Assembly (NCBI GenBank): GCA_002771355.1 | Contig: PCSU01000056.1 | Span: 1 to 49,732 of the forward strand | DNA from: a candidate division WWE3 bacterium CG22_combo_CG10-13_8_21_14_all_39_12 | GTDB lineage: Bacteria; Patescibacteriota; 4484-211; GCA-002791395 | Reading direction: 5' to 3' | DNA length: 49,732 nt | In this document: positions 13,770 through 48,678 of the stretch, one piece after another | Position numbering within the stretch: position 1 is the stretch's first letter | Layout: every line of letters starts with the position of its first letter | Translations under genes and position numbers: made by a program | Notes under the pieces: model-generated | Told to the model about the DNA's origin: nothing | Databases searched by the model: none | The model's input: the letters and a program-made list of their open reading frames with translations, nothing else

Positions 13770-14909
13770 CTACACCTGCCCACGAGCACTTCGCGAAATG
13801 TTTATCAAAATCCCAACCGAAACAAGAAGTAATGTTAATGAAGTGCCCCCGTAACTTATAAAAGGAAGTGGTACACCAGTCAGTGGCATTAATCCAACCA
13901 TTCCCCCTAAATTCACCAACGTTTGAAACGCAATTGTAGTGGTAATACCAACAGCCAAAAATTTACCAAACGGATCTGAAGCTCTTTGTGCAATTGTAAT
14001 TCCTCGCCAAATCACAAATGCAAGTGCACCAATTACTAAAATCGCACCTATAAAACCTAATTCTTCACCGATAATTGCAAATATAGAATCAGTCGTAACC
14101 TCTGGGATATACTCATATTTTTGGCGAGAACTCCCTAGTCCAAGCCCCAATATGCCACCTGACCCCAGTGCAATAAATATTTGTGTAATTTGATATGAAA
14201 CTCCCTGAGGATCCGCCAACGGGTCCAGAAATGTGAAGATTCTTTGCCTTCTATAATCACTCGATAATGCATAAATAACTGCAGAAACAGCTCCTGATAT
14301 CCCAGCAAGACTTATCCAAAACAATGATGCTCCCGCAACAAAATAGACCATAAGCGCTGTTACAGAAATCAAAATTGCGTTTCCGAGATCAGGTTCTAAT
14401 GCCGTTAAAAGTAGAATTGTACCAACAACAACTAAAAATGGCTTGTGGGGCAATCCTCTTCGTATATCTTTATCAAACAAAGCAGCCAAATATATAACGA
14501 TGCTTAACTTAGCGATCTCAGATGGTTGAACTGATATGCTTTGCAAAAATGGCACCGGTATATATAGGCGCTGCTTTGCACCATACACCTCTTGTGAAAA
14601 ACCAGGGAGTAGTACGACAAGAAGTAAAATAATGGTTAAAACAATAAGTGGAAATGCAATCTTTTTTAAAACATGATAATCAATATTACTTACAATAAAG
14701 GCTCCAACTATACCAATAAATGCCCATATGCTCTGGTTTTTTAAAAACCAAAACTTGTCCCCAAATTCTTCAAATGCAACAACGACACTTGTGTTGTAAA
14801 CCATAAACACACCAAACAGCGTGAGTGCTAACACAACTCCAGCAAGCACATAATCTGTTACCGCAAAGGTTCTTATTTTAAAACTGTTCTTTTTTGATCG
14901 TACGGGCAT
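13770..14909 (-). CDS. ftsW: FtsW/RodA (SEDS) peptidoglycan polymerase
   Basis: About 10 TM helices. SEDS motifs QPSEIAKL, PDLGN, TDSIFAIIGEELGFIG and PLPFISYGGTS. Confidence 0.9.
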   Translation of the reverse strand: MPVRSKKNSFKIRTFAVTDYVLAGVVLALTLFGVFMVYNTSVVVAFEEFGDKFWFLKNQSIWAFIGIVGAFIVSNIDYHVLKKIAFPLIVLTIILLLVVLLPGFSQEVYGAKQRLYIPVPFLQSISVQPSEIAKLSIVIYLAALFDKDIRRGLPHKPFLVVVGTILLLTALEPDLGNAILISVTALMVYFVAGASLFWISLAGISGAVSAVIYALSSDYRRQRIFTFLDPLADPQGVSYQITQIFIALGSGGILGLGLGSSRQKYEYIPEVTTDSIFAIIGEELGFIGAILVIGALAFVIWRGITIAQRASDPFGKFLAVGITTTIAFQTLVNLGGMVGLMPLTGVPLPFISYGGTSLTLLLVSVGILINISRSARGQV

Positions 14910-16224
14910 GATTAATTACATCCTCAGGGAACATTTCTAAAGATTGAATTTCAAAAAGTTGCTCATTACTAGATACACTCCTTCCATCACCAATTGTAAG
15001 TAATAAAAATTCATCTTTGGTCAACCCGCCAACAGTATATTGAGATGAGATAAATTCAATTCTTTGATCTCCTCCAACATAAACCCCATTAGGGGGGGTG
15101 TGATTAATAATCACCTGTGATGCTTCAGTATTTCTTGAAATAACTCTCATTCCCTTCAGCTGTTTTGTGAAAAAGTATGGATCATCGATCATGGTATCGT
15201 TAATAGTAATACCAAAGCTTTTATAATGTTCGTTTAAAAGACTTGATCCACATACCTCCTGTTCAAGTTGAGTTATCATCTGGGCAGAAGCTGTAAACCG
15301 TGGATTCATCTCCTGGGCATAAACTCTTGCATGCTCATCTACCAAAAAATCCAATCCAAAAAAACCACGATATCCAAGATCACGCGCAATTGTTGCTAAC
15401 TTAACTGTTATTCTCCCAATGTCAAAAACAACGTCCTTTGTCTTAGTACTAAAATATGGTACAAGGTCCGTCCATACGTTTCCAACAGTACTACCCTCCA
15501 TACGAGCTAAGGGAACCTCCTCATTCATGTCATCATTTATTTGAATAAAAGGATACGTTTGATAAACTTCACTCTCTGAAACTACAGCATTAATAGTAAG
15601 TGTTGTTCCTGGTATAAACTGCGATACTTTTACCTTACGATTACTATACTGATCTCGCAAACTGAATAGATCCGACTCACTTTCAAGAAAAAATGTACGG
15701 TTCCCAAACCAACCTCTTTCAAACTGAACAACCATTCGTTCTCCAAATTCTTGAGACAATGAGTCAAAATGAAGATTATTTAAGTGCTCAACACGAGACG
15801 GCGGGTGAGGTATCTGGTGCTCCTTACACATGCGAACAAAGTTTAATTTATTTTCTAATAGCGAACTTACGGCTGGCGATGCATTCAAAGAACGTATTGT
15901 ACGAGATTTACCTAATGGCGTTTCAGCTATCACTTTCTCTAATGAAAATAATGGTTTAAAAAATATAATCCCCACCTCATCAACACTTCTTTTTAAGATA
16001 AACTCTTGAACTGCATCATGAAGTAACAATTTACGACTATTACGAACGATTATGTCTCCCCCCAATTCTTTTTCAATACAAAATACCGATACACCTTTTT
16101 CTATAAGCATATCAACAATATCGGTATAGTCGACGCAAATCACATGAAAATTCTCATATAAATCTTCAATGCCAAGGGCCCGTAAAGGATCTGTTGCTAC
16201 GTAAAATATTGGTAATCTTTCCAT
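14878..16224 (-). CDS. ATP-grasp family ligase of unknown substrate, occupying the usual murD position
   Basis: 448 aa. C-terminal ATP-grasp core FFGLDFLVDEHARVYAQEMNPRFTAS. Its stop overlaps the ftsW start by 32 nt and its start is 4 nt after the PLP gene. Confidence 0.7.
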   Translation of the reverse strand: MERLPIFYVATDPLRALGIEDLYENFHVICVDYTDIVDMLIEKGVSVFCIEKELGGDIIVRNSRKLLLHDAVQEFILKRSVDEVGIIFFKPLFSLEKVIAETPLGKSRTIRSLNASPAVSSLLENKLNFVRMCKEHQIPHPPSRVEHLNNLHFDSLSQEFGERMVVQFERGWFGNRTFFLESESDLFSLRDQYSNRKVKVSQFIPGTTLTINAVVSESEVYQTYPFIQINDDMNEEVPLARMEGSTVGNVWTDLVPYFSTKTKDVVFDIGRITVKLATIARDLGYRGFFGLDFLVDEHARVYAQEMNPRFTASAQMITQLEQEVCGSSLLNEHYKSFGITINDTMIDDPYFFTKQLKGMRVISRNTEASQVIINHTPPNGVYVGGDQRIEFISSQYTVGGLTKDEFLLLTIGDGRSVSSNEQLFEIQSLEMFPEDVINHARTIKKEQF

Positions 16225-16228
16225 TTGT

Positions 16229-17119
16229 TTAGGTTAGCACAACTACAACATGACTGTTTATCTTAAAATTTACAGTTTGAGCTTTTATAAATCCCGCATA
16301 AGCAAGCGCTCCCTCCTTTGAAAAATCAGTAACCCCATATTCTGTAAGTGTATTAATTGCAGATAAAACCTCATCATCTGTAACAATCCACCCGGATCCA
16401 TTGGTAGCTTTAACTGCATCAATTACTAACTCTTTTCGATCGGTCTGCCTTGCAACAATACCGGTAACAATACTTCGTGCCTTTTTTCTAAACGTTGTAT
16501 CAAATTTTGAAGCAATAGTATTAATATGTTGCGATTGCACAACATGAATCTGCGGCATACTTTCACGTGGCGTATCAGCCATAACAATACCCTCCCAAAA
16601 GCCCTGTACGGTTGTGCCAGAACTAACAGGAAAAAATATACTTACACCATCAACATTCTCACCCTGGGTTTTAATTTGTTGTTGTATTTCATCCCACAGT
16701 GCTTGGTAACCTTTGGTAGCATTACTATCTTTTGATTGTCTCACATACGGAATTGAGTGTTTATGGGAAAAATCTATAGCTCCTTGAATTGCCATTTCTT
16801 GTTTATGAATTATCGCTCCATAGCTAGACAATCTTTCAAACCGAACCGGTTCAATAAAAGGTGGTACAAAAGCATGCAGTGTAATTCCTGCCACCTGACA
16901 ATAGTACGCTGCAGCAACTGAAGCATTCCCCGAAGAAGATACTACAATTTCTCTATGATTCCCCTCAACCATATGGGCAATTTGCCATACCATCCCTCGC
17001 GACTTAACCGAACCAGTAACGTTATGATCTTCTCTTTTTAGCCATACATTTCCAACGTTTTGAAGTGGCGTTTCTGGCCAAGGTAAAGCGTAGTCATTTG
17101 CAAACTGCGAAGCATTCAT
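16229..17119 (-). CDS. Fold-type II PLP-dependent enzyme (Trp-synthase-beta/threonine-synthase/cysteine-synthase superfamily)
   Basis: PLP-lysine motif KREDHNVTGSVKSRG, plus SSSGNASVAAA and a phosphate-loop-like PVSSGTTV. 296 aa. Confidence 0.8.
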   Translation of the reverse strand: MNASQFANDYALPWPETPLQNVGNVWLKREDHNVTGSVKSRGMVWQIAHMVEGNHREIVVSSSGNASVAAAYYCQVAGITLHAFVPPFIEPVRFERLSSYGAIIHKQEMAIQGAIDFSHKHSIPYVRQSKDSNATKGYQALWDEIQQQIKTQGENVDGVSIFFPVSSGTTVQGFWEGIVMADTPRESMPQIHVVQSQHINTIASKFDTTFRKKARSIVTGIVARQTDRKELVIDAVKATNGSGWIVTDDEVLSAINTLTEYGVTDFSKEGALAYAGFIKAQTVNFKINSHVVVVLT

Positions 17120-17172
17120 ATACGTAGTATACTATTTTTTATAAGACAATTGTGTTAAAGGTGGTGAATAAA

Positions 17173-17343
17173 ATGGAAGAAATTCAAACAAAACAAGTAC
17201 CATGTCTAGACTGCGACTCTACTCTTGAGGTCGTTGACGATATTGAGATTGGAGATATTCTAGTATGCGAGGGTTGCGGTGTTGAACTAGAAGTAGTTAA
17301 CAATAACCCCACAGAACTTGATTATCTCTATGTTCAAAAATAA
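17173..17343 (+). CDS. LysW-like zinc-ribbon small protein (amino-group carrier protein fold) lacking the canonical acidic EDWGE tail
   Basis: 56 aa: MEEIQTKQVPCLDCDSTLEVVDDIEIGDILVCEGCGVELEVVNNNPTELDYLYVQK. The CxxC...GE/D-I-hydrophobic-C-E-x-CG-x-ELEVV pattern matches LysW. SD AAGGTGGTG lies 6 nt before ATG 17173. Antisense to the dcw operon. Confidence 0.6.
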   Translation: MEEIQTKQVPCLDCDSTLEVVDDIEIGDILVCEGCGVELEVVNNNPTELDYLYVQK

Positions 17344-17352
17344 AAACGATTC

Positions 17353-18378
17353 TTAGATCGTTGCAATAAAAAGTCCAATAAAAGCACATAAAGCACCAGC
17401 GATCCAAAACCGCATGGTTACTTTTGTCTCATCCCACCCCATCGCTTCAAAGTGATGGTGTAGTGGTGCAATTTTAAATAATCTCTTTTCCCCAAGATAT
17501 CTAATTGAAAACAACTGAATAAGGCTTGATAATAACTCAATAACAAATACCCCTCCAATAATTGGTAACACAAGAGACTTTCCAATAAGTAAAGCTATTA
17601 CTCCCAATAATGCTCCAAATGCTATTGAGCCTGAATCCCCCATAAATAACCGTGCTGGATACACATTAAAATACAAGAACGCAAGGAGCGCACCCATAAG
17701 AACAGCTATAAATAAAATCACATCTCCTGAAAATGTATGTGGTACTGCTAACACCCAAAACGCAGATAATGCAATTAACATAAGTCCTGTTGCAAGACCA
17801 TCCATCCCATCAGTAATATTAAATGCATTGCTCGACGATACAATTACAAATGCAGCAAAGGGAATATATAACCACCCAAGACTTATATCATTAACTCTAA
17901 AAACACTGGAAAGAATCGGGATTTCAACTGTATGTAGTCCGGTGAATTTATATAAGAGGTATCCAATAATTAATCCTAATATTGTCTGAATAATAAGCTT
18001 CTCAAGGGCAGGAAGTGCACGAATCCTGCGTTTACGAACCCGAATCATTTTTCGAAAGTCGTCATACATCCCCAAAACTCCAAATGAGATAAGTGTTACA
18101 AACAAAATAATTGATGTCCAGTTTATAGAAAATGAAGTAACTACATAAAAAATTATAGAGAACAGTAATACTGACCCAAGGATAAGTACTCCTCCCCCTG
18201 TTGGCGTTCCGACTTTCCACCCATGCAAGTCATTAAATACCGTCTTGTTCCCGTGCATATCAACACTTTTTACAGGTTTTTGTCGAATATGTAACTTGTA
18301 AAGTGCATGTATAAATGGAATTGCAAGCGCAGCAGTGAAGATAAAAGATAGAAGTAATATCGCAAATATTTTGTACAT
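17353..18378 (-). CDS. mraY: Phospho-N-acetylmuramoyl-pentapeptide transferase MraY
   Basis: Polytopic membrane protein with NAFNITDGMDGLA, FMGDSGS and PLHHHFE motifs. Confidence 0.95.
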   Translation of the reverse strand: MYKIFAILLLSFIFTAALAIPFIHALYKLHIRQKPVKSVDMHGNKTVFNDLHGWKVGTPTGGGVLILGSVLLFSIIFYVVTSFSINWTSIILFVTLISFGVLGMYDDFRKMIRVRKRRIRALPALEKLIIQTILGLIIGYLLYKFTGLHTVEIPILSSVFRVNDISLGWLYIPFAAFVIVSSSNAFNITDGMDGLATGLMLIALSAFWVLAVPHTFSGDVILFIAVLMGALLAFLYFNVYPARLFMGDSGSIAFGALLGVIALLIGKSLVLPIIGGVFVIELLSSLIQLFSIRYLGEKRLFKIAPLHHHFEAMGWDETKVTMRFWIAGALCAFIGLFIATI

Positions 18379-18384
18379 TTTTTA

Positions 18385-20472
18385 TTATGTTGTATTTAGT
18401 ATCTTTAATCTTCGTACACCATCTCCACGCTCAGGATGAAAATGCACACTATACGCTTCTCCCTGTGGAGTTTTTTCTTGCCATTGTTGTTCCTGCAACG
18501 ACTTTTTAGCATCAACGACTTTGATTATAGCAGTGTGTGGCCCTTGTCGTACGGTTCTTTTATATGAAGAATGTGCATACTCAATCTCAGTAATAACACC
18601 ATTTTTTCTTGTGATACCAGTAATAATCAAGACATGGTCACCCGGTCTTGCTACACCCATGCGAATCATATCAGATTCTTGAATATCGTTGATATCAGAA
18701 ATGGGAACGGTGTGCTTATCATTTGTTAACATATCTGCACTCACATTTCTGTACCAACGATCCGGCATCAGGGATTTTCGTATCCTGCCAAAAAGGCTTG
18801 TTGGAGTAATAAGTTTAGTAAGACTTGGTATCTCTCTAGTTAACAGATATGCATTCAATACATGGAACACCATGCCAGAACACTCAATGCCAATCTGTTG
18901 CTGTTTCATAAATCTAAACACTTCGGCATCTGAATGGGTTTCAAGATCAAACTCGTTTTCCTGTGCCATTTCAAGTAATTCATGGCGAATCACCTCTGGA
19001 GAACCCTTGCCGGCGCTCCTTTTTATATTAAATCGCTTTTGATTAATAACGTATGGGATTTTTATGTTCTTTTCATTTACCGTAAAATTGATATATTCAC
19101 CTAAGCGTTCCCTCATCGCTCGAGTAGCCTTAGCATGCTTAAGCCTATCAATAAGTCTCTCATCAAGACCATCCATTCCACCTGACGACATCAAAACATA
19201 TACACACGGCAAAGGTTCTGAAATAAGCTTAAAAATTAACACGTCTTGTTGTGGGGCATACATGGTATGCTCATGCGTTTTTGAAATAGCTGCAACAATA
19301 TCTTTACCTGTAACTTTATAATCAGCATCTTTTTTGGCAGACACTTTGGGAATATATAGTTTATCTGCTGCACTAAAGCGATTGTCAAATTCTGTTAATA
19401 CGGCCGGATTTTTAAGCGATGAGGAAAACATGTCAAATACACCAACAACCGTACTGTCTGGCCATTTTTGTTTTATTGATAAAAGCACTGTCTGCGCTTT
19501 TACTGGAGAATGTGCCAAGTCCCTAACAATAACAGTGCCGGCATCGTCATAAATAACTTCCATCCTTTGTTTCAATCCAGCATAAGATTCAAGATGAGCC
19601 TTTACTTGAACAGAATCAAATCCAATCTCTGTTAACAACGTATATGCAGCTGTAAGATTATCTTTATTAAATTCCCCAAGCATGGTCGGTGTCCAGTTAA
19701 GATCAATTGTTTTAATATCTGATGAACCATCATGTGAATACGTTACAACCTTACATGGCGCATGAGATATGGCATCTTTAATGTTTTTACCATCAACATT
19801 TGCAATAAGAACACCATCAGAAGGAAGCTTACTTACTAACTCAATGTAGTTTTTTATATAAAGATCTTCTGTTGGAAACTGATCGTAATGATCCCATTCG
19901 GCTGAGGTTAGAACAAGATACTTTGGCTTATAGTAAAAAAACTTAGATTGCGGCGGTTCACTTGTCATTGGAGGTACTGGATACTCATCTCCTTCAACAA
20001 CTGACCATTTCCCTTGAGAAGAAACCAAACTCTCCTCATAGCCTACCATTTGCCCTCCCACCATATATGATGGATCTTGATGAAGCTGAGATAGCACATG
20101 AACAATTGCACCCGATATCGTACCTTTCCCAAAATTGCCTGCTACAACAATCGACTCATCTTTAACCACATATTCACCAAGAACTTCTGGGTATGAAACA
20201 GTTTTAATATGTAATACTTTAGCCTTTTCAAATTCTGGATTATGAGGGTCAACAATCAATGCATTCCCACCAACTACAACAAGATCCGTCCCAGGTTTCA
20301 GATTATCGGCATTATATGGAGACGAAATCTTGACGCCAATTTTCTCAAGATACGTACTATTTGGCGGATACACGTTTATGTCAGATCCTGAGACATTCCA
20401 ACCCTTTTTTAAAAACATATGAGCCAGGGCAGATGTTGCTTTGCCAGCTATTCCAATAATGTGTACATTCAT
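18385..20472 (-). CDS. Mpl-type Mur ligase (UDP-MurNAc:murein-tripeptide ligase-like) fused to a ~250-aa C-terminal Cys/His peptidase-like (NlpC/P60- or transglutaminase-like) domain
   Basis: The N-terminus HIIGIAGKATSALAHMFLKKGWNVSGSDINVYPPNSTYLEKIGVKI closely parallels E. coli Mpl (GSDANVYPPMSTLLEKQGIE). Also VEGDEY, AEWDH, RDLAHSP and LMSSGGMDGL. Variant P-loop AGNFGKGT. Extra C-terminal region (aa ~446-695) has GIECSGMVFHV ... PGDHVLIITG ... EYAHSS. Confidence 0.75.
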   Translation of the reverse strand: MNVHIIGIAGKATSALAHMFLKKGWNVSGSDINVYPPNSTYLEKIGVKISSPYNADNLKPGTDLVVVGGNALIVDPHNPEFEKAKVLHIKTVSYPEVLGEYVVKDESIVVAGNFGKGTISGAIVHVLSQLHQDPSYMVGGQMVGYEESLVSSQGKWSVVEGDEYPVPPMTSEPPQSKFFYYKPKYLVLTSAEWDHYDQFPTEDLYIKNYIELVSKLPSDGVLIANVDGKNIKDAISHAPCKVVTYSHDGSSDIKTIDLNWTPTMLGEFNKDNLTAAYTLLTEIGFDSVQVKAHLESYAGLKQRMEVIYDDAGTVIVRDLAHSPVKAQTVLLSIKQKWPDSTVVGVFDMFSSSLKNPAVLTEFDNRFSAADKLYIPKVSAKKDADYKVTGKDIVAAISKTHEHTMYAPQQDVLIFKLISEPLPCVYVLMSSGGMDGLDERLIDRLKHAKATRAMRERLGEYINFTVNEKNIKIPYVINQKRFNIKRSAGKGSPEVIRHELLEMAQENEFDLETHSDAEVFRFMKQQQIGIECSGMVFHVLNAYLLTREIPSLTKLITPTSLFGRIRKSLMPDRWYRNVSADMLTNDKHTVPISDINDIQESDMIRMGVARPGDHVLIITGITRKNGVITEIEYAHSSYKRTVRQGPHTAIIKVVDAKKSLQEQQWQEKTPQGEAYSVHFHPERGDGVRRLKILNTT

Positions 20473-20474
20473 GT

Positions 20475-21257
20475 TTAATGTGAATCACGTTTTATATTTA
20501 AAACGTCAACAATGCCTTTGTAACCATTAATATCTAACCACTCTTTATCTTTAAGAAGTTCTTGCAAAGACTCTTTATTAAGTAGATATTTGAGTGCATC
20601 AATATTTGTATTCCATTTTGATCCATCGAAAAATTCAAACCCAGAAAAATTCGTTTTGTAGAGTGAGGCTTGAGAATACGCTGTTCCCAAATATGCATAG
20701 GACAAGCCATCATTTTTTGCCCAATTAATTGCCTCTAACATCATGCGTGAACCCAATCCACTAGCTGATACTGCGGTGTTAATAAACGCCATCCAATAGA
20801 ACATACTGCCCCCAGATACCATAACAGGTATCATTCCTGCTATACGATCATCATCTTGTCGCTTCCACGTAAAAATCACATCACTCATATGATGAGAAAA
20901 CATTCGTTTTATTGCATGATCGGAAACCTTTGCATCCCCCATTACATCAATAACAAATTGGCGCATCCATAATAAATCTGTGTTATTAATTCTCACTGAA
21001 TCACTTGATTGAATGGTGAAATGATATGGCGATGTTTTTTTTATAACGCGACGATTTTCTGAAGAAGGTTCAAATTGATTAAGATCAATTCGCGTTGAAC
21101 GAGCAAGATACCATAAACCAATTTTCATTCTCGAAGGCAAAAAACCCATGTTAAGTAATGAAGCTTTATCTTCATTATTATCTTCTAAGGCCCACACTTG
21201 ATACGGAAACGCATAGTCATTATAGGAAGCAAGATGTTCTGAGAATAGTAACTTCAT
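20475..21257 (-). CDS. ATE/Bpt-family (arginyl/leucyl-tRNA--protein transferase-like) aminoacyl-tRNA transferase homolog
   Basis: 260 aa. GFLPSR...RIDLNQFEPSSENRRVIKK parallels Bpt GFRRSG...RV..F.PS.SQRR. The C-terminal LSYAYLGTAYSQASLYKTNFSGFEFFDGSKW parallels the ATE_C motif YLGY...YK..F.P.E....W. The N-terminal Cys cluster of Bpt is absent. Confidence 0.6.
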   Translation of the reverse strand: MKLLFSEHLASYNDYAFPYQVWALEDNNEDKASLLNMGFLPSRMKIGLWYLARSTRIDLNQFEPSSENRRVIKKTSPYHFTIQSSDSVRINNTDLLWMRQFVIDVMGDAKVSDHAIKRMFSHHMSDVIFTWKRQDDDRIAGMIPVMVSGGSMFYWMAFINTAVSASGLGSRMMLEAINWAKNDGLSYAYLGTAYSQASLYKTNFSGFEFFDGSKWNTNIDALKYLLNKESLQELLKDKEWLDINGYKGIVDVLNIKRDSH

Positions 21258-21335: not shown

Positions 21336-22802
21336 ATGGATAACAATTTTAGTATTGATAATCTCAAACAAGCAGTTCTTATGTATCACCCATCTGCAGA
21401 AATTGAGATAATAGATAACGCCTACAATTTTGCCGAGATGGCATATGCGGACATAAACAGAATTGACGATACCCCACTTATTGATCATGCCCTTGCAACG
21501 GCACTTATCCTTGCTGATATTCGAGTTGACGAACACACTATTGCAGCAGGTCTCCTTCATGACATCATCCATGAAACAGATCTTTCCCTCCAGGATATAG
21601 AAGGTGATTTTGAACCAGAAACCTTAAAACTCATTACTGACATTAGTAAACTTAAAACATATACGACAAAACAAAGTGAACTAGCCTATGCCCAACAATT
21701 AAGAAATCTATTTCTTGCTACAACTGAAGACATTCGTGTTGTTTTAGTACGACTTGCTGAAAAAATCCACAACTTACATAGCATTACAGCTCTTCCGCAA
21801 GAAAAAAGACTTGTTGTTGCTCAAAAAGCTATTGACATTTATGCACCACTTGCCGACCTATTGGGTGTTCAAAAATTTAAACGTGAACTTGAAGACCGAG
21901 CATTTGAGGTTTTAAACAAAGTAGAATTTGAAACCATAAAAAATTATTATGACTCCAGGTATGGTTCACAAGACAGTACGGTTAATGCGATCCACGATGA
22001 CTTACAGCAAACACTCGCATCACGAAACATGGATTTCAAACTGTATGGACGCATGAAGGCAAAATACAGTACCTATAAAAAATTCCTTGCAGAAAGCGAG
22101 GGGAAACAGACTCTTGAAGATTTTCTCGATACTATTTATGACAAAATTGGATTCACTATTCTTGTTAACTCAACGGAAGACTGCTACAGGAGTTTAAGCA
22201 CCTTGCGTCGTGAATTCCCTTCTGCACGGGATCTAGTCAAGGACTATATTATAAATCCCAAACCTAATGGATATAAAGCTATTCACACCTACATAACTAC
22301 AAAAAACGACATGCCTTGTGAGGTTCAAATAAAAACTCACATCATGCACGAATTTAATGAATTTGGGCCTGCTGCACATGCATTCTACAAACTTGTGGGT
22401 AGAAAACGTGGTTCCTTGCTTGAAACACCTGAAGAGAAAATAACTCAAATGAAAGAACTCTTACATTGGAAGGAAGGCATTCTTAGCGATAACGATGCGA
22501 CAACAAAACTAACAACTTTCAAAAAACATATTTATGTCTTTACCCCTAAAGCCGATGTTATTGAACTACCTCACGGTGCAACCCCAATAGATTTTGCATA
22601 CCATATTCACACTAAAATTGGCGATCGCATACGTGGAGCTCATGTTAATAATAAATTTGTCGGTATAGATCATGTTTTAGAGAATGGTGATGTATGCGAA
22701 ATCCTAACCCGTAACGGAAGACAAAAACCAAGCCGTGATTGGCTCAGAATAGCAAAAACTGCTGCAGCTCGAAGCCAGATTAGAAAATCACTTCAAGAAT
22801 AA
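21336..22802 (+). CDS. RelA/SpoT homolog (HD-like domain + (p)ppGpp synthetase domain + TGS), no ACT/RRM domain
   Basis: AAGLLHDIIHETD (HD), GRMKAKYSTYKKF, DYIINPKPNGYKAIHT, EVQIKTHIMHEFNEFGPAAHAFYK, and TGS IYVFTPKADVIELPHGATPIDFAYHIHTKIG. Opposite strand to the dcw genes. Confidence 0.88.
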   Translation: MDNNFSIDNLKQAVLMYHPSAEIEIIDNAYNFAEMAYADINRIDDTPLIDHALATALILADIRVDEHTIAAGLLHDIIHETDLSLQDIEGDFEPETLKLITDISKLKTYTTKQSELAYAQQLRNLFLATTEDIRVVLVRLAEKIHNLHSITALPQEKRLVVAQKAIDIYAPLADLLGVQKFKRELEDRAFEVLNKVEFETIKNYYDSRYGSQDSTVNAIHDDLQQTLASRNMDFKLYGRMKAKYSTYKKFLAESEGKQTLEDFLDTIYDKIGFTILVNSTEDCYRSLSTLRREFPSARDLVKDYIINPKPNGYKAIHTYITTKNDMPCEVQIKTHIMHEFNEFGPAAHAFYKLVGRKRGSLLETPEEKITQMKELLHWKEGILSDNDATTKLTTFKKHIYVFTPKADVIELPHGATPIDFAYHIHTKIGDRIRGAHVNNKFVGIDHVLENGDVCEILTRNGRQKPSRDWLRIAKTAAARSQIRKSLQE

Positions 22803-22833: not shown

Positions 22834-23955
22834 TTACGTAGTATATTGATTGATTAGTTCACGAACAACAGCTTGGTCACTCCATGGGATTTCTGTTTTA
22901 CCATCTAGATTCATGGATTTCTCATGTCCCTTTCCAGTAATTAAAACAATGCTTCCCTCCGTTGCTTGTGATAGTGCAAATGCAATTGCTTCTTTTCGAT
23001 TGGGCTTAATAAAATAAGTTTCATCACGTACACCACCTGCATTGCCTGCCCCTAAAGCAATTTGTTGACAAATTACGTTCACATCTTCTGTGCGTGGATC
23101 TTCAGCAGTTATCACTGTTAAATCAGCATTTTTTACTGCAATTTCACCCATTGTTGGACGTTTGTGATAATCACGCTCACCAGCACACCCAAAAACAACA
23201 ATTACCTTACTTTCGGTTGAGACCATGGTACGAACAGAAGTTAACGCAGTATATAAACCTTTTGAGGTATGTGCAAAATCTACGATTACTTTAAACTTGT
23301 CATTATATACAACCTCCATTCGCCCAGAGATTGCAGTTACTGACTCGATACCTTTTTTAACAAACTCTTGTGGTACTTGTAAGGCAAGTGCAATCGCTGC
23401 TGCTAGTTTTGCATTTTGCGTATTATAGCTCCCCAAGAGATTAACATCGATTCCCTGAAGCACTCCATCCGAAATATTCTCAGCACTAAGCGAAATATCA
23501 CCAGTAGCTAAAAATGAAAGTTTTGTCTTTTGATAAGCTTCAAAACTTTTATGGTAATCCAAATGCTCGTGTGTAATATTTGTTAGTCCAGTTACATTAA
23601 AATGCACACCCGCAAACCTGTTTTGATCAATTGCATGGGAAGTTACCTCCAAAACAACATGGGTCATCCCTTCATTTACCATGCTACGTAATATTTTTTG
23701 AACATCCCATGCCCCGGGACTTGTTACATGAAACCCTGTATCCATCTGCTTATCTCCAAACTGTGCAGAAATGGTTGATAATAAGCCAACGTTAATTCCT
23801 GCTTTACTTAAAATTGCATGCGTATAAATAGATGTCGTTGTTTTACCATCAGTGCCTGTAATACCAATCACAGTCAGCTTACGAGAAGGGTGACCAAAAT
23901 ATATAGTGGCAATCCACGCACGAAGTAAATGAAATATGTTTTTGATTTTTTGCAT
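22834..23955 (-). CDS. murE: MurE-like Mur ligase lacking the N-terminal (UDP-MurNAc-binding) domain
   Basis: 373 aa. The P-loop VIGITGTDGKTTT starts at about aa 28. Also EVTSHAIDQNR, ITHEHLDYH, VDFAHTSKG, GCAGERDYHKRPTMG, TAEDPRTED and TGKGHE, all MurE signatures. About 100 aa shorter at the N-terminus than typical MurE. Confidence 0.8.
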   Translation of the reverse strand: MQKIKNIFHLLRAWIATIYFGHPSRKLTVIGITGTDGKTTTSIYTHAILSKAGINVGLLSTISAQFGDKQMDTGFHVTSPGAWDVQKILRSMVNEGMTHVVLEVTSHAIDQNRFAGVHFNVTGLTNITHEHLDYHKSFEAYQKTKLSFLATGDISLSAENISDGVLQGIDVNLLGSYNTQNAKLAAAIALALQVPQEFVKKGIESVTAISGRMEVVYNDKFKVIVDFAHTSKGLYTALTSVRTMVSTESKVIVVFGCAGERDYHKRPTMGEIAVKNADLTVITAEDPRTEDVNVICQQIALGAGNAGGVRDETYFIKPNRKEAIAFALSQATEGSIVLITGKGHEKSMNLDGKTEIPWSDQAVVRELINQYTT

Positions 23956-23957
23956 AT

Positions 23958-24977
23958 TTATAATCCTTTCTTTAATCGTTCAAGTTTTACATATATCCAC
24001 ATGGGCCAATATTTCCATACTTTAATTGGATAATCGAGTGTATTCATCCACCGAACTCTTTTACCACCGAAACCTTTTTTAAAGAATGTTAACCCTGCCC
24101 TCGGATGGTTTGGATTGTCAGTTGGTGCAACCCCCCAAAAATCATACGTTTTTGCTCCTCGTTCCTTTGCACGTTTAATAAGTGCCCACTGCAAGGCATA
24201 CTGTGCATGTTCATCTCCATATTCATTGGTAGACCCACTATGATGATAAAAAGCCATCTGGTCATAAAACACTAAAAGAGATGCAGCGTGTACTCTTCCT
24301 TTGTGCTCGGCAATCAAAATCTCAATAAGTCCATCTTTGTTGAATGCTTCAAACTCATCAATAAAAAATTGTTTATCATACGAAACAAAACCCTGACGTT
24401 TTACTGTTTCATTATATACGTCAAAAAGTTTACATAGGTCAGAAACATCCGTTGATATGCGTACTGTCACCCCTTGTTTTTGAGCCTTTCGTACATAATA
24501 GCGCGTATTCTTACGCATTGATGAAAGTAATTCATCTTCAGATTGCGTAAGATCAAGAGTCATGGTGTACTCGGCATTAAAGTACATGGGAGCCTTCCTA
24601 TAACCCATACTAATATATTCCTTAATTTTTTGATCATCGTGAATAAGTGGTGCACGAAAACGCATAAAATCAAGATTTTCTTTTTGAGCATACTCAAGAA
24701 TATGCGTATGAAAAGCATTAAACTGTGCCTTATCCTCCCAATCAATAGTTGGTCCTGCATGCGAAACTATATAGTTTGCCCGTCTAGATTTCACCACAAC
24801 ACATAAATTGGCACCAACGAGCTGGTCATCATCATATAGTCCGAGACGAAGGACCGTATGTCCCTGGCTTTCCTCAAAATCTCCCCAATTCCACGCCTGA
24901 AGCATAGATTGTGGGTTATGTGAACACACTAATGCCCGCCACTCATTTTTATTTGTTACATCATGTACTGTTAACAT
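23958..24977 (-). CDS. FemAB/FemX/MurM-family peptidoglycan peptide-bridge aminoacyl-tRNA transferase
   Basis: 339 aa. MRKNTRYYVRKAQKQGVTV and YHHSGSTNEY...AQYALQWALIKRAKERGAKTYDFWGV are typical of the FemABX family. Confidence 0.8.
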   Translation of the reverse strand: MLTVHDVTNKNEWRALVCSHNPQSMLQAWNWGDFEESQGHTVLRLGLYDDDQLVGANLCVVVKSRRANYIVSHAGPTIDWEDKAQFNAFHTHILEYAQKENLDFMRFRAPLIHDDQKIKEYISMGYRKAPMYFNAEYTMTLDLTQSEDELLSSMRKNTRYYVRKAQKQGVTVRISTDVSDLCKLFDVYNETVKRQGFVSYDKQFFIDEFEAFNKDGLIEILIAEHKGRVHAASLLVFYDQMAFYHHSGSTNEYGDEHAQYALQWALIKRAKERGAKTYDFWGVAPTDNPNHPRAGLTFFKKGFGGKRVRWMNTLDYPIKVWKYWPMWIYVKLERLKKGL

Positions 24978-24979
24978 AA

Positions 24980-26227
24980 TTAAGCTCCCTTTTCTTCTTT
25001 GTACTCCTTATACAAAGAAATTACTAACGAAACGTCTTCATCGGTCATTCGGGAATACGTTGGCAAGTTTACCACCTGTGATGCAACATCTTCTGCTACA
25101 GGAGCATCACCTACGGTATACCCTAATTTAGACAGATCCACTTCACATGGGGCTACTACTTGATCATACCAATCACCCAAAATAACGCCGCGCCGTGAAA
25201 AATACTTCTTCATTTCTGTTGGACTGTTTTCTAAAATGGCATAACGTAACCAAACTCGTTCTGCTGTATCAATTTGAACACTTTGTATTCCTGCATCATA
25301 ATACTTCGATGCAATTTCAGTACGACGATTCGTGGACACCTTAAGGGAAGAAAGCTGGGACATTGCAAGTTTAGCCAAAACTCCAGGCATTTTTTTTGTA
25401 GTCCATAGTGGACGAGGTCCTGACATCTTCTCATCAAAAGACGTGGCTTTTGATATTAAACCTATATTTTGCAACACATAATGCCATGCTTTTCCGAATG
25501 ATAACCAATGGTATGTTACTAGTGATATCCACGTTGTGATCGGATGTAATAGCTGTTTTTTGATCCACCACCAACCCATCTTTTTTCGAGTTTCCACCTG
25601 CTGTCTATATTTGTTTTGTTTTCCAAAATCTTTTAAGACAACAATACCTCCAAACACTGAACTGACGATTTTGTCACGCCCAAAACTAAACACACTCGCG
25701 TCCGCTATTGTCCCCACTGGTTTGCCATCACGGGTAGCGCCAAGGGCATGGGCACAATCTTCGATAACAATAATCCCCTTTTCGTGCGCAAACGATAAAA
25801 GTTCATCAAGATCCTGAAACGGCAATCCAAACGTATGCTGAACAATAATTGCTTTCGTCTTTTTTGAAACATGCTTTTTTACTTCCTCTAAACTCACATT
25901 CAAGGAATCCTTTTCAATATCAACAATAACTGGAGTCGCGCCAACCCAATGAACAGGATTGGTGACTGCAACACAGGTAAACCCCTGAACAATAACCTCG
26001 TCACCTTTGCCAATACTATATGTAGAAAGAATATCCGCTATACCTGCCCGTGCACTATTAATTGCAAACACTGATTCTTTTGAGATAGAAAGAATATCTG
26101 AAAACACACTTTCTAATTCATGTACTGGTTCCGTGTCACGCCATTTCCATGGCTGTAATAGCAATGCTATAGCAAGATGTACATCCTCTTTTGAAATATT
26201 TGGGGATAAGCTTGGGGTGATAAGCAT
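24980..26227 (-). CDS. DegT/DnrJ/EryC1/StrS-family PLP-dependent sugar aminotransferase
   Basis: GDEVIVQGFTCVAV, VIEDCAHALGA, and the PLP-Lys motif FSFGRDKIV. 415 aa. Confidence 0.85.
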   Translation of the reverse strand: MLITPSLSPNISKEDVHLAIALLLQPWKWRDTEPVHELESVFSDILSISKESVFAINSARAGIADILSTYSIGKGDEVIVQGFTCVAVTNPVHWVGATPVIVDIEKDSLNVSLEEVKKHVSKKTKAIIVQHTFGLPFQDLDELLSFAHEKGIIVIEDCAHALGATRDGKPVGTIADASVFSFGRDKIVSSVFGGIVVLKDFGKQNKYRQQVETRKKMGWWWIKKQLLHPITTWISLVTYHWLSFGKAWHYVLQNIGLISKATSFDEKMSGPRPLWTTKKMPGVLAKLAMSQLSSLKVSTNRRTEIASKYYDAGIQSVQIDTAERVWLRYAILENSPTEMKKYFSRRGVILGDWYDQVVAPCEVDLSKLGYTVGDAPVAEDVASQVVNLPTYSRMTDEDVSLVISLYKEYKEEKGA

Positions 26228-26228
26228 A

Positions 26229-27515
26229 TTATGAATTGCTAGTCAATTTCGTCATTGTTTGTAAATTAATCAAAGACCTTCCCTCAAAAAGTACTGCAAC
26301 TGATCCGACCTTGTTAACCATTTCATCATAGAGTTGTTTAGCTGATACAACAAGCTTCGCATGAGCATAATACTTGGCGTGGAAAGGTTCAACAATATAA
26401 AAACCATCAACACGTGGGAAAATTTCTTGGTCCAACGCACTGTTTACAGATTGCGATTCTTCGCCTAACTCATATACTCCCGTACAAACCACAATATGAC
26501 GATCAGCAGGGATTGAAACAAGTTTCTCGACAGCCGCTCGAAATCCTGTGGAATTGCTATTATACGTATCATCAATAACAGAAAGATTATCTGAAACCTT
26601 TGTTATTTGCATACGTGATTGTTGTGGATTAATATGTGAAATCCCTTGCGCAATCTGATCCTCGGTCATTCCCAGCAATGCACCAACAACACGTGCGGCC
26701 TGGACATTTTGATCAACGTTTCGTGACTCATACGTCATTATTGCAACATCAATATTTTTGACAAGCTCCTCAACATTTTTGTCTGCAACATTTAATACAG
26801 CTGTACCGTTTACATCAAGTGCATCAATCAACTCCATTTTTGCTTTTATAATATTTTCCTTACCACCAAAAAGACCAGCATGCTGTTCATTAAGTCCTGT
26901 CATAACACCAATTTTTGGTTTCATCGCATCAGCGACAAGCTTTATTACCCCTTGATAATATGCTCCCATTTCTACGACATATACATCATATGAAGCATCT
27001 AAGTATCGTAATGCATGGAGGGCAACACCAATCTCACCATTGGCACTTTTGGGTGTTCTTAAAACTTTAAATTTTTCACTTAATACGTCGGCTATAACTT
27101 CTTTTGTTGTGGTCTTTCCGTACGATCCAGTTACACCAATCACTATAAGGCTCGGAAACATAGCCCGCTTACGTTTTGCCAGAAACAATAAAAATCGTTC
27201 AACAAAAAACGATGGTATTGACCATAAAAACACAGCCGCTGCTATAGCGAATGGTCCTCCAATAACAACTAAAAACGCTACACATACAACCCAAAATAGC
27301 GATAGCTTTGGAATAGTGACTAGTGGGAAAAGTACTATTACTGCAGCAGTAAGAGAAATAAGGACAATCTTAATCGTAATCTTTGGACGTTTGCGTTGAC
27401 CTGATAGTAATAAACGGACTCGATCTTGTGGAGTTAAAGACTGAATAAATAACACCATTCGATCTCGTCTATATCCTTTGAGTTGCCATTGATATAACCA
27501 GTAAATAAAATTCAT
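26229..27515 (-). CDS. murF: MurF-like Mur ligase with the N-terminal domain replaced by a ~110-aa membrane anchor (2-3 TM helices)
   Basis: VIGVTGSYGKTTTKE, ANGEIGV, VVEMGAYYQG, NEQHAGLFG and IDDTYNSNSTGFRAAVEKL are MurF signatures. The N-terminus IVLISLTAAVIVLFPLV...LFWVVCVAFLVVIGGPFAIAAAVFLW is hydrophobic. Confidence 0.8.
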   Translation of the reverse strand: MNFIYWLYQWQLKGYRRDRMVLFIQSLTPQDRVRLLLSGQRKRPKITIKIVLISLTAAVIVLFPLVTIPKLSLFWVVCVAFLVVIGGPFAIAAAVFLWSIPSFFVERFLLFLAKRKRAMFPSLIVIGVTGSYGKTTTKEVIADVLSEKFKVLRTPKSANGEIGVALHALRYLDASYDVYVVEMGAYYQGVIKLVADAMKPKIGVMTGLNEQHAGLFGGKENIIKAKMELIDALDVNGTAVLNVADKNVEELVKNIDVAIMTYESRNVDQNVQAARVVGALLGMTEDQIAQGISHINPQQSRMQITKVSDNLSVIDDTYNSNSTGFRAAVEKLVSIPADRHIVVCTGVYELGEESQSVNSALDQEIFPRVDGFYIVEPFHAKYYAHAKLVVSAKQLYDEMVNKVGSVAVLFEGRSLINLQTMTKLTSNS

Positions 27516-27521
27516 ATGTAT

Positions 27522-28250
27522 TTATGTGCGTTGGGTAAAACGCATAATTTCTTTAACCACAATCTCAGGATGTTCGTATAAAAACGAATGCCCGCGCCCC
27601 TCTACTGCGACAAGCGTTGATTGCGGTATTTTCTCACTCCATACTTTTGACATGGTAAATGGTGTTGCCTTGTCTTGCCTTGCCCACAACAATAATGTTG
27701 GTACTTTAATCCCCATAAGATCTTCACGAATGTCTTGCGATAAAACTCGACTTAGGATGGATTTTAGTCCTTCTGGTGCCTGCGCATAATCATAAGAACC
27801 TGTACCTTTTGTCCATAGTTTTGTAACACCAGACTTAAAGACAGAAATTATTGGTAAAGAAAATATAATAGATCCCCACGAGGCCAACTGTTTTTTTATG
27901 TCTAAAATCAGGTTTTTGGTCCGTACACCTGACGGATTAACCACCACTAAATGTGAAGCAAGAGTTGGATACTTTGCACTACACAATGCACAAACAGCCC
28001 CACCAAAGGAATGTCCAACCAATACGACAGGTGCCTTAGCATTGTTTACTATGTACTCTTCTAACCATTGTGCGTACTCAGAAATACCCCAATCTGTTGG
28101 AGGTACATTCGTTTGTCCAAAACCGGGCAAGGTTGGAACTAATACACGGTATCCTAGACCATTGAGTTCATCTTCAAGTTTTTTAAGTGGATTTATTTTA
28201 TATGTCCACCCGTGAACAAGAACTATTGTTACATTATTCTTGATATCCAT
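27522..28250 (-). CDS. Alpha/beta-fold hydrolase
   Basis: VLVHGW, nucleophile elbow VGHSFGG, and C-terminal GRGHSF. 242 aa. Confidence 0.8.
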   Translation of the reverse strand: MDIKNNVTIVLVHGWTYKINPLKKLEDELNGLGYRVLVPTLPGFGQTNVPPTDWGISEYAQWLEEYIVNNAKAPVVLVGHSFGGAVCALCSAKYPTLASHLVVVNPSGVRTKNLILDIKKQLASWGSIIFSLPIISVFKSGVTKLWTKGTGSYDYAQAPEGLKSILSRVLSQDIREDLMGIKVPTLLLWARQDKATPFTMSKVWSEKIPQSTLVAVEGRGHSFLYEHPEIVVKEIMRFTQRT

Positions 28251-31581: not shown

Positions 31582-31923
31582 CTACCGGGTAGCTATTGAA
31601 CGTTCGTCTGGGGTTTCAGAAATAAACACCAGGTGTGAAAATGACCTATCCATGCTAAATTCCTCGCGAGCCTGTTTTTCAATCTTTGGCATCGCTGACA
31701 ATGCAACAATTTCTTCTCTTAATACTTCCATCTTGTCCTCGAGTTCTAGTTTGCGATTTTCGAGTACTGAAATATTCTGACCTGTTGTTGCAACCTGAGC
31801 TGCAAAAAAGATTTGTGCTGAAAAGGCGACAACGACAGCAATAATAAGAGTACTCATCGCAGTTATGTTTCGAAGTTTATTCGACATGGTTTTTTTTGTG
31901 TTTTCAGTTATTTTTCTATTCAT
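31582..31923 (-). CDS. ftsL: FtsL/FtsB-like septal protein (single TM + coiled coil)
   Basis: 113 aa. TM helix MSTLIIAVVVAFSAQIFFAA followed by heptad-like ENRKLELEDKMEVLREEIVAL. Position between rsmH and ftsI, with a 4-nt overlap with rsmH. Confidence 0.6.
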   Translation of the reverse strand: MNRKITENTKKTMSNKLRNITAMSTLIIAVVVAFSAQIFFAAQVATTGQNISVLENRKLELEDKMEVLREEIVALSAMPKIEKQAREEFSMDRSFSHLVFISETPDERSIATR

Positions 31924-32807: not shown

Positions 32808-32820
32808 TAAATTCCCCAAT

Positions 32821-37417: not shown

Positions 37418-37420
37418 ATT

Positions 37421-38872: not shown

Positions 38873-38873
38873 T

Positions 38874-41853: not shown

Positions 41854-41859
41854 TACTCT

Positions 41860-42984: not shown

Positions 42985-43014
42985 ATGTTATTGTGATAAG
43001 TATAACAAGTTATC

Positions 43015-44196: not shown

Positions 44197-44200
44197 ACAA

Positions 44201-45115: not shown

Positions 45116-45138
45116 TTCAAGTATTCATTAATATTTCA

Positions 45139-46701: not shown

Positions 46702-46718
46702 ATTATGTTTATCCAGAA

Positions 46719-48559: not shown

Positions 48560-48611
48560 AATTCAACGTAACTGTACCATCGTTTTGTACCACAATACAC
48601 TCCTATTACTC

Positions 48612-48640
48612 TTGACAACCACCCCGGAATTGTTTAATCT
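48612..48640 (+). promoter_or_regulatory. Candidate promoter for abiEi: TTGACA-17 nt-TAATCT
   Basis: Consensus -35 at 48612-48617, 17-nt spacer, -10 at 48635-48640, 38 nt before ATG 48679. Confidence 0.5.
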
Positions 48641-48678
48641 GTAAGTAGATAGTCACCATAAACGGTTACTTACGATAT

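Follow-up and report, generated by a model that had tools for sequence, protein, structure and literature searches.

Few bacterial pathways are as conserved, or as well drugged, as peptidoglycan precursor synthesis, and its cytoplasmic steps are considered settled. The pairing of a Mur-ligase-like enzyme with a Cys-His hydrolase has one well-known precedent, MurT/GatD, whose hydrolase is a glutaminase, and in the glutathionylspermidine and trypanothione synthetase/amidases an ATP-grasp synthetase is joined to a papain-like amidase of the CHAP family, which sets a precedent for bifunctional enzymes of that make-up. The papain-like hydrolases of the NlpC/P60 superfamily normally degrade the wall from outside the cell, and those of the YkfC type act on free peptides. 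In the LysW/LysX/LysK system, a substrate is loaded onto, modified on, and released from a small zinc-ribbon carrier protein whose canonical C-terminal tail, EDWGE, bears the substrate on its terminal Glu; the scaffold-peptide (“pearlin”) route of amino acid biosynthesis is a looser parallel to the system described here. The subject of this study is a fused gene in a 49,732-nucleotide stretch of DNA (49.7 kb, hereafter the window) from the candidate division WWE3 bacterium CG22_combo_CG10-13_8_21_14_all_39_12 (contig PCSU01000056.1 of assembly GCA_002771355.1). The gene encodes a protein of 695 amino acids in which a Mur ligase of the MurC/Mpl clade is followed by a domain, here named X, that appears to be a divergent member of the NlpC/P60 superfamily. 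Its parts are laid out as follows.

18385..20472, minus strand: fusion open reading frame (ORF), 695 amino acids plus a TAA stop codon at 18385-18387, with an ATG start (ORF call and motif check)
19165..20472, minus strand: Mur ligase of the MurC/Mpl clade, residues 1-436, with N, middle, and C domains (Pfam, NCBIfam, PDB, Foldseek, and alignment with the Escherichia coli enzymes)
19090..19167, minus strand: junction, residues 436-461 (alignment with the related locus L001 and full-length model)
18385..19164, minus strand: X, predicted divergent NlpC/P60-superfamily cysteine hydrolase domain, residues 437-695 (homologue alignment, Pfam, AlphaFold2, and Foldseek)

The fusion is almost certainly genuine and conserved across a small clade, and the two enzymes are separate proteins in most bacteria of the Candidate Phyla Radiation (CPR). 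An identical 695-amino-acid protein from a Joint Genome Institute (JGI) sample is on record (P0162), and a separate JGI contig of 909 nucleotides (P0001) crosses the junction and encodes an identical fragment. The preliminary description of this DNA, which was made by a model, had proposed a search for the same fusion in other genomes, and two further species were indeed found. One comes from Logan run SRR22388098 (P0014, 700 amino acids), where the gene is flanked, as in the window, by an ATE/GNAT-like gene and mraY, and the other from contig CAYZXG010000054.1 of a GTDB genome (L007/P0015, 697 amino acids). The proteins of the three species are 58-59% identical over their full length, have the junction in common, and keep Cys531 and His613. 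In the next-closest lineage (L001), a ligase of 449 amino acids and an X of 252 amino acids are encoded separately but side by side in the same order, with a stop codon, a 31-nucleotide spacer, and an ATG between them; the window aligns in frame straight through this stop-spacer-start region, and no homopolymer is present there. The three species are those found among the matches listed from a search of 5.8 billion proteins, and at the level of genome loci the fusion occurs, besides the window, in one of 80, X being a stand-alone protein of ~250 amino acids in 78. A scan for promoters and terminators around the junction gave nothing above shuffled expectation, and the ORF starts 2 nucleotides after the upstream ATE/GNAT-like gene and ends 6 nucleotides before mraY.

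An artifact of mis-assembly or frameshift, or a dead C-terminal domain, would agree with the separation of the genes in 78 of the 80 loci and with their adjacency, in the same order and 31 nucleotides apart, in L001. We consider its chance negligible, because three divergent species share the junction, the frame shows no problem, Cys531 and His613 are retained, and the full-length model is confident. Mis-assembly or a frameshift at the junction is ruled out by the three species, which come from independent data sets, by the clean frame, and by the lack of a homopolymer, and a noncatalytic domain is made improbable by Cys531 and His613, which are invariant family-wide and retained in all fusions, and by the triad, which is not lost. 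These were the two grounds on which the preliminary description had expected that its proposal might fail, and neither holds. In the AlphaFold2 (AF2) model of the full-length protein (predicted local distance difference test [pLDDT] score, 94.7; predicted template modeling [pTM] score, 0.90), the C-terminal tail of the ligase is predicted to pass without a break into the first helix of X, making one continuous helix of residues 436-461, which suggests that the protein is a rigid two-enzyme unit. A Foldseek search with this model returned no solved PDB chain covering both halves.

The residues on which the assignment of X turns are encoded at the following positions.

18880..18882, minus strand: codon of Cys531, predicted nucleophile, in IG(I/V)(D/E)CSG at a helix start (alignment, match to Spr, and model helix 531-545)
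18634..18636, minus strand: codon of His613, predicted catalytic His at a strand start, in DHVLII (alignment, match to Spr, and model strand 613-623)
18571..18573, minus strand: codon of His634, in YAHSS, predicted third residue of the triad (alignment; near the end of model strand 626-636)

In the window these motifs read IGIECSGMVFH (Cys531), PGDHVLIITG (His613), and EYAHSS (His634), and all the motifs and coordinates quoted in the preliminary description were recovered at their places in the 695-residue ORF. Homologues of X were collected by a word-indexed search of the 5.8 billion proteins and by a profile search of 1.84 billion cluster representatives. The former gave 13 homologues of X, all stand-alone proteins of 210-266 amino acids bar one identical junction-spanning fragment, and the latter gave 796 cluster representatives at E<=1e-3. 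In an alignment of 132 X sequences, whose mean column identity is 25%, Tyr474, Lys489, Gly528, Cys531, His613, and Gly644 are invariant, and Pro473, Gly488, Ser532, Gly533, Asp601, Tyr632, His634, Trp664, and Arg688 are at least 90% conserved, so that the conservation of the C-terminal motifs lies far beyond chance. When the members were scanned one by one against Pfam, NLPC_P60 (PF00877) was matched at E<=1 by 95 of the 132, with a best E value of 3.3e-7, and the other matches were to Amidase_6 (32/132), CHAP (16/132), DUF1287 (9/132), and DUF1175 (4/132), which we take to be papain-like relatives of NlpC/P60. The X profile also aligns with Spr/MepS at GIDCSGFV and GDL..HVGIY, at E values of 0.24-0.43, which are not significant.

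The AF2 model of X (pLDDT, 93; pTM, 0.91) has Cys531 at the N terminus of a helix; a strand opens with His613, and the strand that follows has His634 close to its end. The three highest-ranking Foldseek matches, with probabilities of 0.89-0.95, are the NlpC/P60 enzymes 2evr, 2hbw, and 23tz (CwlO), the first two of which are gamma-D-glutamyl-L-diamino-acid endopeptidases. The hallmarks of the superfamily are thus found in X, namely Cys in (D/E)-C-S-G at a helix start, His on a strand after a G-D-hydrophobic motif, and a third His on the next strand. The call in the preliminary description for an assignment of the C-terminal region by hidden Markov model (HMM) or fold was taken up with family-level Pfam matches, AF2, and Foldseek, which point to NlpC/P60 through matches that for the window domain itself are weak or absent, and its suggestion that the C-terminal ~260 residues are papain-like of this type is borne out by the conserved Cys/His/His set, the PF00877 matches, and the top three folds. 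It had also remarked on an unusually long Cys-His spacing. The spacing is indeed 82 residues, compared with ~51 residues in Spr, a value with which the Spr alignment agrees, because a helical insert of ~30 amino acids follows the Cys helix. From these sequence features and the model, it is very probable that X is a catalytically competent hydrolase of the NlpC/P60 type.

Comparison with the YkfC-type enzymes from Nostoc (2evr) and Anabaena (2hbw), and with CwlO (23tz) and Spr/MepS, makes the position of X clearer. All of them seem to have a papain-like core in common, with a helix that opens with the Cys of (D/E)CSG, a strand that opens with the His, and a third His about 20 residues further on, and these enzymes are both the top fold matches of X and its only colinear sequence matches. 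X differs from them in lacking SH3b domains and in having the ~30-residue insert and an X-specific N-terminal extension of ~90 amino acids, which holds conserved P-Y and G-K-G-x-P motifs, the invariant Tyr474 and Lys489 and the near-invariant Pro473. Unlike them, it is fused to ATP-dependent cytoplasmic ligases and has no signal peptide discernible by eye, and the window X domain falls below every curated threshold. As X is fused to enzymes that depend on ATP, and inspection by eye reveals no signal peptide, we infer that it is cytoplasmic, and its substrate would therefore be soluble precursors or a protein-bound intermediate rather than the sacculus.

The ligase half matches PF01225 (Mur_ligase), PF08245 (Mur_ligase_M), and PF02875 (Mur_ligase_C) over residues 3-413, all above the cutoffs. 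Its features agree with those of the Mur ligase superfamily: the three domains, a GxxGK(T/S)-type P-loop, and the conserved Glu, Asp-His, Asn, and Arg are all present. The P-loop is a variant one.

20119..20139, minus strand: variant P-loop GNFGKGT, residues 112-118, in which G112, G115, and K116 are invariant (ligase alignment)

The same GNFGKGT occurs in the two other fusion species (P0014 and L007), and GNYGKGT is found in L001. Residues G112, G115, K116, E160, D162/E163, D194/H195, N269, N272, and R303 are shared without change with both MurC and Mpl of E. coli. The ligase half is probably an active enzyme, since its clade keeps the variant P-loop and none of the catalytic residues (Lys, Glu, Asp-His, Asn, and Arg) is lost.

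Whether it is closer to MurC or to Mpl is less simple, because the scores disagree. Among NCBIfam models, murC (TIGR01082) came first with 209.1 bits against a curated cutoff of 335.1, and mpl (TIGR01081) gave 167.9 bits against an equivalog cutoff of 388.7. In PDB sequences, Psychrobacter Mpl (3hn7, 117.3 bits) and Roseburia MurC (9ir5, 117.2 bits) tie, and Foldseek with the full-length model matches MurC and Mpl structures equally well, at E values of about 1e-31 to 1e-29. Closed MurC structures match the ligase half with a template modeling (TM) score of 0.80, and the differences in TM score among the matches probably track open versus closed conformations. In pairwise comparison, E. coli Mpl (b4233) can be aligned with the ligase over its whole length, at 26.7% identity and a score of 149 bits, against 82 bits for E. 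coli MurC, and all 48 of the homologous ORFs from the window and related CPR loci prefer E. coli Mpl over MurC, by a median of 52 bits. The question was therefore judged by indels and binding-site motifs. The alignment with E. coli MurC and Mpl was interpreted using the feature list of Das et al. 2011 (PMC3060825), which gives as specific to Mpl the loop after DEY, (S/T)AFFDKRSK, together with Tyr182, GI(C/G)GTFM, FAHH, EPRSNT, and SNG, and as L-Ala-binding residues of HiMurC Tyr346, His348, His376, Arg377, and Arg380.

In these terms the CPR ligase shares with Mpl (E. coli b4233 and PaMpl, 3hn7) the N-terminal NVYPPxSTxLE motif, which in the fusion ORF stands at residues 29-46 as GSDINVYPPNSTYLEKIG, as well as the DEY Tyr, after which comes an inserted loop that closes with SKF. 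In sequence this loop, PVPPMTSEPPQSKF, is unlike the (S/T)AFFDKRSK of Mpl, and MurC has a 10-residue gap where CPR ligases and Mpl carry it. Also in common with Mpl are one extra residue in the EPRSNTMK segment, the A-H motif (LAHSP in the CPR ligase, FAHHP in Mpl, and YGHHP in MurC), and the tail motif MS(S/N)GG. The H376-R377-x-x-R380 of MurC is gone from the window and from all aligned CPR homologues, which have F-S-S-S-L-K with one extra residue instead, and the Y-G-H of MurC corresponds to L-A-H in the window ligase. Features specific to Mpl are, however, not all kept: GI(C/G)GTFM is replaced by GIAGKATS, E-P-R-S-N-T survives only in part as DMFSSS, and SNG becomes SSG. The CPR ligase also differs from Mpl in lying within a biosynthetic division/cell-wall (dcw) operon rather than a recycling locus and in carrying X. 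With MurC it shares the three-domain fold and the position of first ligase in the dcw cluster, and relatives of the CPR ligase are sometimes fused to MurB (P0187 and P0211), like the known MurB/C fusions; it differs from MurC in having the 10-residue loop, in lacking H376/R377/R380, and in scoring below the curated cutoff. Judged from these sequence comparisons, the ligase half belongs to the MurC/Mpl clade and leans toward Mpl, but falls in neither curated family. The “Mpl-type” label of the preliminary description is thus right as to the SKF loop, the extra EPRSNTMK residue, the A-H motif, MSSGG, and the higher score with E. coli Mpl, but not as to Mpl proper, given the TIGR01081 score of 168 against 389, the higher score of the murC HMM (209), and the ties in PDB and fold searches.

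The nature of the ligase also bears on the idea that X supplies amide nitrogen by hydrolyzing a gamma-glutamyl amide such as Gln, the ammonia passing to the ligase for amidation of a precursor carboxylate. NlpC/P60 chemistry does target gamma-glutamyl amide bonds, but the ligase keeps the full UDP-binding N-domain and the MurC/Mpl architecture, unlike MurT, and we know of no NlpC/P60 glutaminase; we regard this explanation as very improbable.

The genes that accompany the fusion in the window are given below.

20475..21257, minus strand: putative aminoacyl-tRNA transferase of the ATE_C/GNAT kind (Fem-like; ATE_C / Acetyltransf_6), from Pfam/NCBIfam
17353..18378, minus strand: mraY, directly downstream of the fusion ORF (Pfam and NCBIfam)
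17152..17343, plus strand: LysW-like zinc-ribbon ORF ending in ...LYVQK, a module member
16229..17119, minus strand: threonine-synthase-like fold-type-II pyridoxal 5'-phosphate (PLP) enzyme (PALP; Pfam), a module member
14878..16224, minus strand: ATP-grasp_3-type amide ligase, a module member with homologues joined to X in further CPR lineages

The dcw cluster of the window lies on the minus strand with two plus-strand interruptions (21336-22802 and 17152-17343). In the order of transcription it runs mraW (31920-32819), ftsI, a MurA-like gene, an alpha/beta hydrolase gene, a MurF-like ligase gene (26229-27515), a DegT-type aminotransferase gene, a FemX-like gene, murE (22834-23955), the first plus-strand gene, the ATE_C/GNAT-like gene, the fusion ORF, mraY, the LysW-like ORF on the plus strand, the PLP enzyme gene, the ATP-grasp gene, ftsW, murG, one further ORF, ftsA, and ftsZ. 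It contains three Mur-ligase genes only, those for the fusion protein, MurE, and the MurF-like ligase, and the fused ligase is its only one of the MurC/Mpl clade, that is, its only first-step ligase. In relatives, the MurC/Mpl-like ligase gene adjoins those of MurB and MurA. No separate murC, murD, or ddl is present in the cluster within the 49.7-kb window, so the remark in the preliminary description that murC and murD are lacking stands for this window, although several related clusters do encode a weakly MurD-like ligase, in some right after X. Such divergent Mur ligases, encoded on the plus strand, follow X directly in four Gottesmanbacteria-labeled loci, L033 (~6713), L036 (~4379), L045 (~6572), and L083 (~6504), and in L048 (~3696), and their best E. 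coli match is MurD, at a weak 28-43 bits.

Other members of the window cluster are also unusual. MurE (22834-23955, minus strand) has just 373 amino acids, and its matches to MurE models start around model position 95, so that the N-terminal UDP-binding domain seems to be missing; in the MurF-like protein (26229-27515), Pfam recognizes no domain other than the middle and C ones. Genes for the FemX-like transferase, a DegT/PseC-type sugar aminotransferase, and the alpha/beta hydrolase (23958-28250, minus strand) are inserted between those of the MurF-like protein and MurE, which suggests more noncanonical modifications of the precursor. The lone plus-strand ORF inside this minus-strand stretch (21336-22802, 488 amino acids) resembles, as judged by eye, a (p)ppGpp enzyme of the RelA/SpoT type.

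CPR bacteria are host-dependent, and the fused protein might serve salvage, as the preliminary description had proposed. X would then act in the cytoplasm on murein peptides imported from the host, trimming them either as an LD-carboxypeptidase or, like YkfC, as a gamma-D-Glu-diamino-acid endopeptidase, and the Mpl-like ligase would reattach L-Ala-D-Glu or a tripeptide to UDP-N-acetylmuramic acid (UDP-MurNAc), bypassing MurC and MurD. This explanation agrees with the activity of 2evr and 2hbw, the top fold matches of X, on free murein peptides, with the leaning of the ligase toward Mpl and its lack of the L-Ala site of MurC, and with the lack of murC and murD in the window. PaMpl, moreover, accepts L-Ala-D-Glu weakly (PMC3060825). 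Neither a muropeptide importer nor an AmpD-like amidase is seen in the window cluster, however, and the ligase, which in relatives is close to MurB and MurA, lies in a biosynthetic dcw operon that has no other first-step ligase; some related clusters also have the MurD-like ligases. We think this explanation, with its trimming by X and reattachment by the ligase, plausible but unlikely, at roughly one chance in five.

The distribution of X provides the broader context. When one genome from each GTDB species was scanned, X turned up in 314 CPR genomes. In the best 80 loci, every informative label is Patescibacteria/CPR (WWE3, Microgenomates groups, Dojkabacteria, and Paceibacterota); a few of the 80 bear implausible automatic labels, and the closest relatives of the window organism are labeled WWE3 or “Saccharibacteria.” The related loci examined span about 12 kb or less each; an apparent X ORF of 370 amino acids in L041 was left out because its translation was not clean. 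The order of the window type is ATE-like, ligase, X, mraY, LysW on the minus strand, PALP, ATP-grasp, ftsW, and murG; in Microgenomates it is mraY, X, LysW on the minus strand, PALP, ATP-grasp, and ftsW; in Paceibacterota it is ATP-grasp, X, mraY, ATE-like, ligase, and PALP; and in Dojkabacteria-type loci such as L019 it is LysW, PALP, ATP-grasp, and X. A module of a LysW-like protein, a PLP enzyme, an ATP-grasp ligase, and X, usually beside mraY, the ATE/GNAT-like gene, and the Mur ligase gene, therefore recurs in CPR dcw clusters. In addition, the top 150 cluster representatives include at least 19 proteins of 615-739 amino acids in which X is fused to the ATP-grasp ligase (for example, P0036, P0037, P0041, P0044, P0052, and P0058), the N-terminal part of which belongs to the family of the window ATP-grasp protein (E values down to 5e-51). 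In one protein (P0110), X is followed by a Peptidase_C39_2 domain.

By the Rosetta-stone argument, the ATP-grasp-X and ligase-X fusions imply that the partners act on one metabolite stream, and the two fusion pairs would be expected if the ATP-grasp enzyme, X, and the ligase acted consecutively on one intermediate. That X works in the peptide metabolism of peptidoglycan precursors is, in our opinion, probable. Salvage leaves the ATP-grasp-X fusions, which are the more frequent ones, unexplained, and likewise the linkage of X to the PLP enzyme and the LysW-like protein. In Dojkabacteria-type loci such as L019, moreover, all four genes of the module are present, and the examined flanks show no Mur ligase. 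The supply of amide nitrogen fails to explain the same fusions and the same linkage. Alternatively, X might be an opposing or proofreading amidase, hydrolyzing the amide made by its partner ligase, either ATP-grasp or Mur, so as to edit misligated products or regulate the flux of precursors. Its fusion to two different ATP-dependent amide ligases fits this role, as do the CHAP matches of 16 of the 132 members and the presence of trypanothione synthetase (2vob) at rank 8 among the weak fold matches of X. The 2vob match is, however, insignificant (E 0.63), the domain order is opposite to that of glutathionylspermidine synthetase/amidase (GspS), CHAP homology is clan-level only, and the strong association of X with the PLP enzyme and LysW-like protein again goes unexplained, so that we hold a proofreading role to be rather improbable, slightly more so than salvage. 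GspS, trypanothione synthetase-amidase, and MurT/GatD resemble the CPR proteins in coupling an ATP-dependent amide ligase to a Cys/His hydrolase, but they differ in domain order, in hydrolase family (CHAP or class-I glutaminase), and in substrate, and their homology to X is clan-level or none.

The partners of X resemble the parts of the LysW/LysX/LysK system in kind: a small zinc ribbon, an ATP-grasp enzyme, a modifying enzyme, and a hydrolase, as for loading, modification, and release. The module differs from that system in that its hydrolase is of the NlpC/P60 type rather than an M20 metallopeptidase, its ligase is of the ATP-grasp_3 type, the carrier-like tail is E-(E/G/Q)-K, and the genes form part of the dcw cluster. 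Of 87 records searched for the LysW-like gene, 56 contain it, such as L001 (3299-3493, minus strand) and L004 (8711-8869, minus strand), and the protein ends in Lys in 51 of 52 distinct sequences (EEK in 27, EGK in 14, and VQK among the rest), which may make it a carrier or scaffold protein of a new type. The ATP-grasp family has ATP-grasp_3 matches in 41 of 47 members, and among solved structures the top profile match is to 8yi6, a gamma-glutamyl-forming ligase (E 1.9e-5, spanning about 60 residues). A divergent Ddl was considered for this protein and rejected, because L016, L017, and L021 encode a bona fide Ddl in addition to it, and weak Ddl matches were seen in only 9 of the 47. A universal replacement of MurD by the PALP/ATP-grasp module was also considered, and is weakened by the weakly MurD-like ligases of several related clusters. 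The ATE/GNAT-like gene stands directly upstream of the MurC/Mpl-like ligase gene in most related loci (for example, L004, 1295-2077, and L089, 182-1027), and its product, which gives weak matches to bacterial arginyl/leucyl-transferase models, could add an amino acid to a stem-peptide intermediate.

Taken together, these genes can be read as a carrier-release route. The ATP-grasp enzyme would form an amide bond and so load or extend a substrate, for which the LysW-like protein, with its C-terminal tail, is a possible carrier, and the PLP enzyme would modify the attached unit. X, as an amidase or acyl-transferase, would then cleave a gamma-glutamyl-type or C-terminal amide bond through a Cys531 thioester and thereby release or trim the stem-peptide building block made by the module. 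UDP-MurNAc would receive the freed amino acid or short peptide from the Mpl-like ligase at the expense of ATP, after which MurE and MurF would extend the stem. In the fused form, with its rigid junction helix, the product of X might be channeled into the ligase. As a whole, this mechanism of loading by ATP-grasp, modification by the PLP enzyme, release by X, and coupling by the ligase is proposed tentatively, with a likelihood somewhat short of even; among the readings considered, it covers the largest share of the observations.

Several observations weigh against this carrier-release route and the assignments on which it is built. The ligase-X fusion is rare, having been found in three species. 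The LysW-like gene was not detected in 31 of the 87 records, many of which are short. The window LysW-like protein fits the CxxC...CxxC ribbon of TIGR01206 but scores 28.8 bits, below the cutoff of 53.2, and the tail of the family, ...E-(E/G/Q)-K, is not the canonical EDWGE. The ATP-grasp enzyme is not of the RimK/LysX type, which makes the carrier analogy loose. As for X, the window domain taken alone has no match in Pfam (even at E<=1), in NCBIfam, or in PDB sequences, its fold matches are weak (E 0.02-0.08, TM 0.27-0.52, none at E<=1e-3), and its cytoplasmic location is deduced from the fusion partners and from N termini judged by eye. A further step from the carrier-release route would be that many CPR bacteria synthesize the murein precursor en bloc with the help of a carrier, instead of by the route of MurC followed by MurD, with the LysW-like protein as the scaffold on which the ATP-grasp and PLP enzymes build a unit that X frees and the Mpl-like ligase loads. 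We view this generalization as doubtful, a little less so than salvage. An explanation outside those considered here is about as likely as salvage.

The window also has features unrelated to the fusion. Its GC content is about 38%, and neither a tRNA nor an Rfam match was found anywhere in it. A tandem run of four genes for the large subunit of ribonucleotide reductase (132-2294, 2315-4426, 4497-6299, and 6596-8341, all on the minus strand) includes two with ATP-cone domains, one without, and one of the NrdJ type (B12-dependent), and four paralogues are an unusual count for a CPR organism with a small genome. Downstream of the dcw cluster, positions 35579-49461 hold a polysaccharide/glycoconjugate locus with genes for a DUF4012 protein, a polyprenyl glycosylphosphotransferase, a UbiA enzyme resembling decaprenyl-phosphate phosphoribosyltransferase, GT4 glycosyltransferases, and a flippase-like protein.

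The fusion is not categorically new, because its parts belong to the known Mur ligase and NlpC/P60 superfamilies. What is new is a CPR-restricted NlpC/P60 subfamily missed by curated libraries, its placement inside a biosynthetic dcw operon in a presumably cytoplasmic location, the repeated joining of X to ATP-dependent amide ligases, one of which is a Mur ligase with, in consequence, a new architecture, and the accompanying LysW-like protein with a near-invariant C-terminal Lys. In the literature searched, which was full text and included few subscription papers, neither the cassette nor a Mur-ligase/NlpC-P60 fusion was found described, and no mention was found of LysW-like proteins encoded within dcw clusters of the CPR. 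Even the modest reading alone yields a defined NlpC/P60 subfamily and a corrected annotation for hundreds of “hypothetical proteins,” and the natural fusions are ready-made constructs with clear candidate substrates, which makes the question directly testable in vitro. Because NlpC/P60 enzymes are normally extracellular degraders of the wall, the presence of X in a biosynthetic operon points to an extra or alternative step, whether release, trimming, editing, or salvage. The CPR makes up a huge and mostly uncultured share of bacterial diversity, and the fusion hints that these bacteria use a nonstandard step in the making or salvage of their wall peptides.

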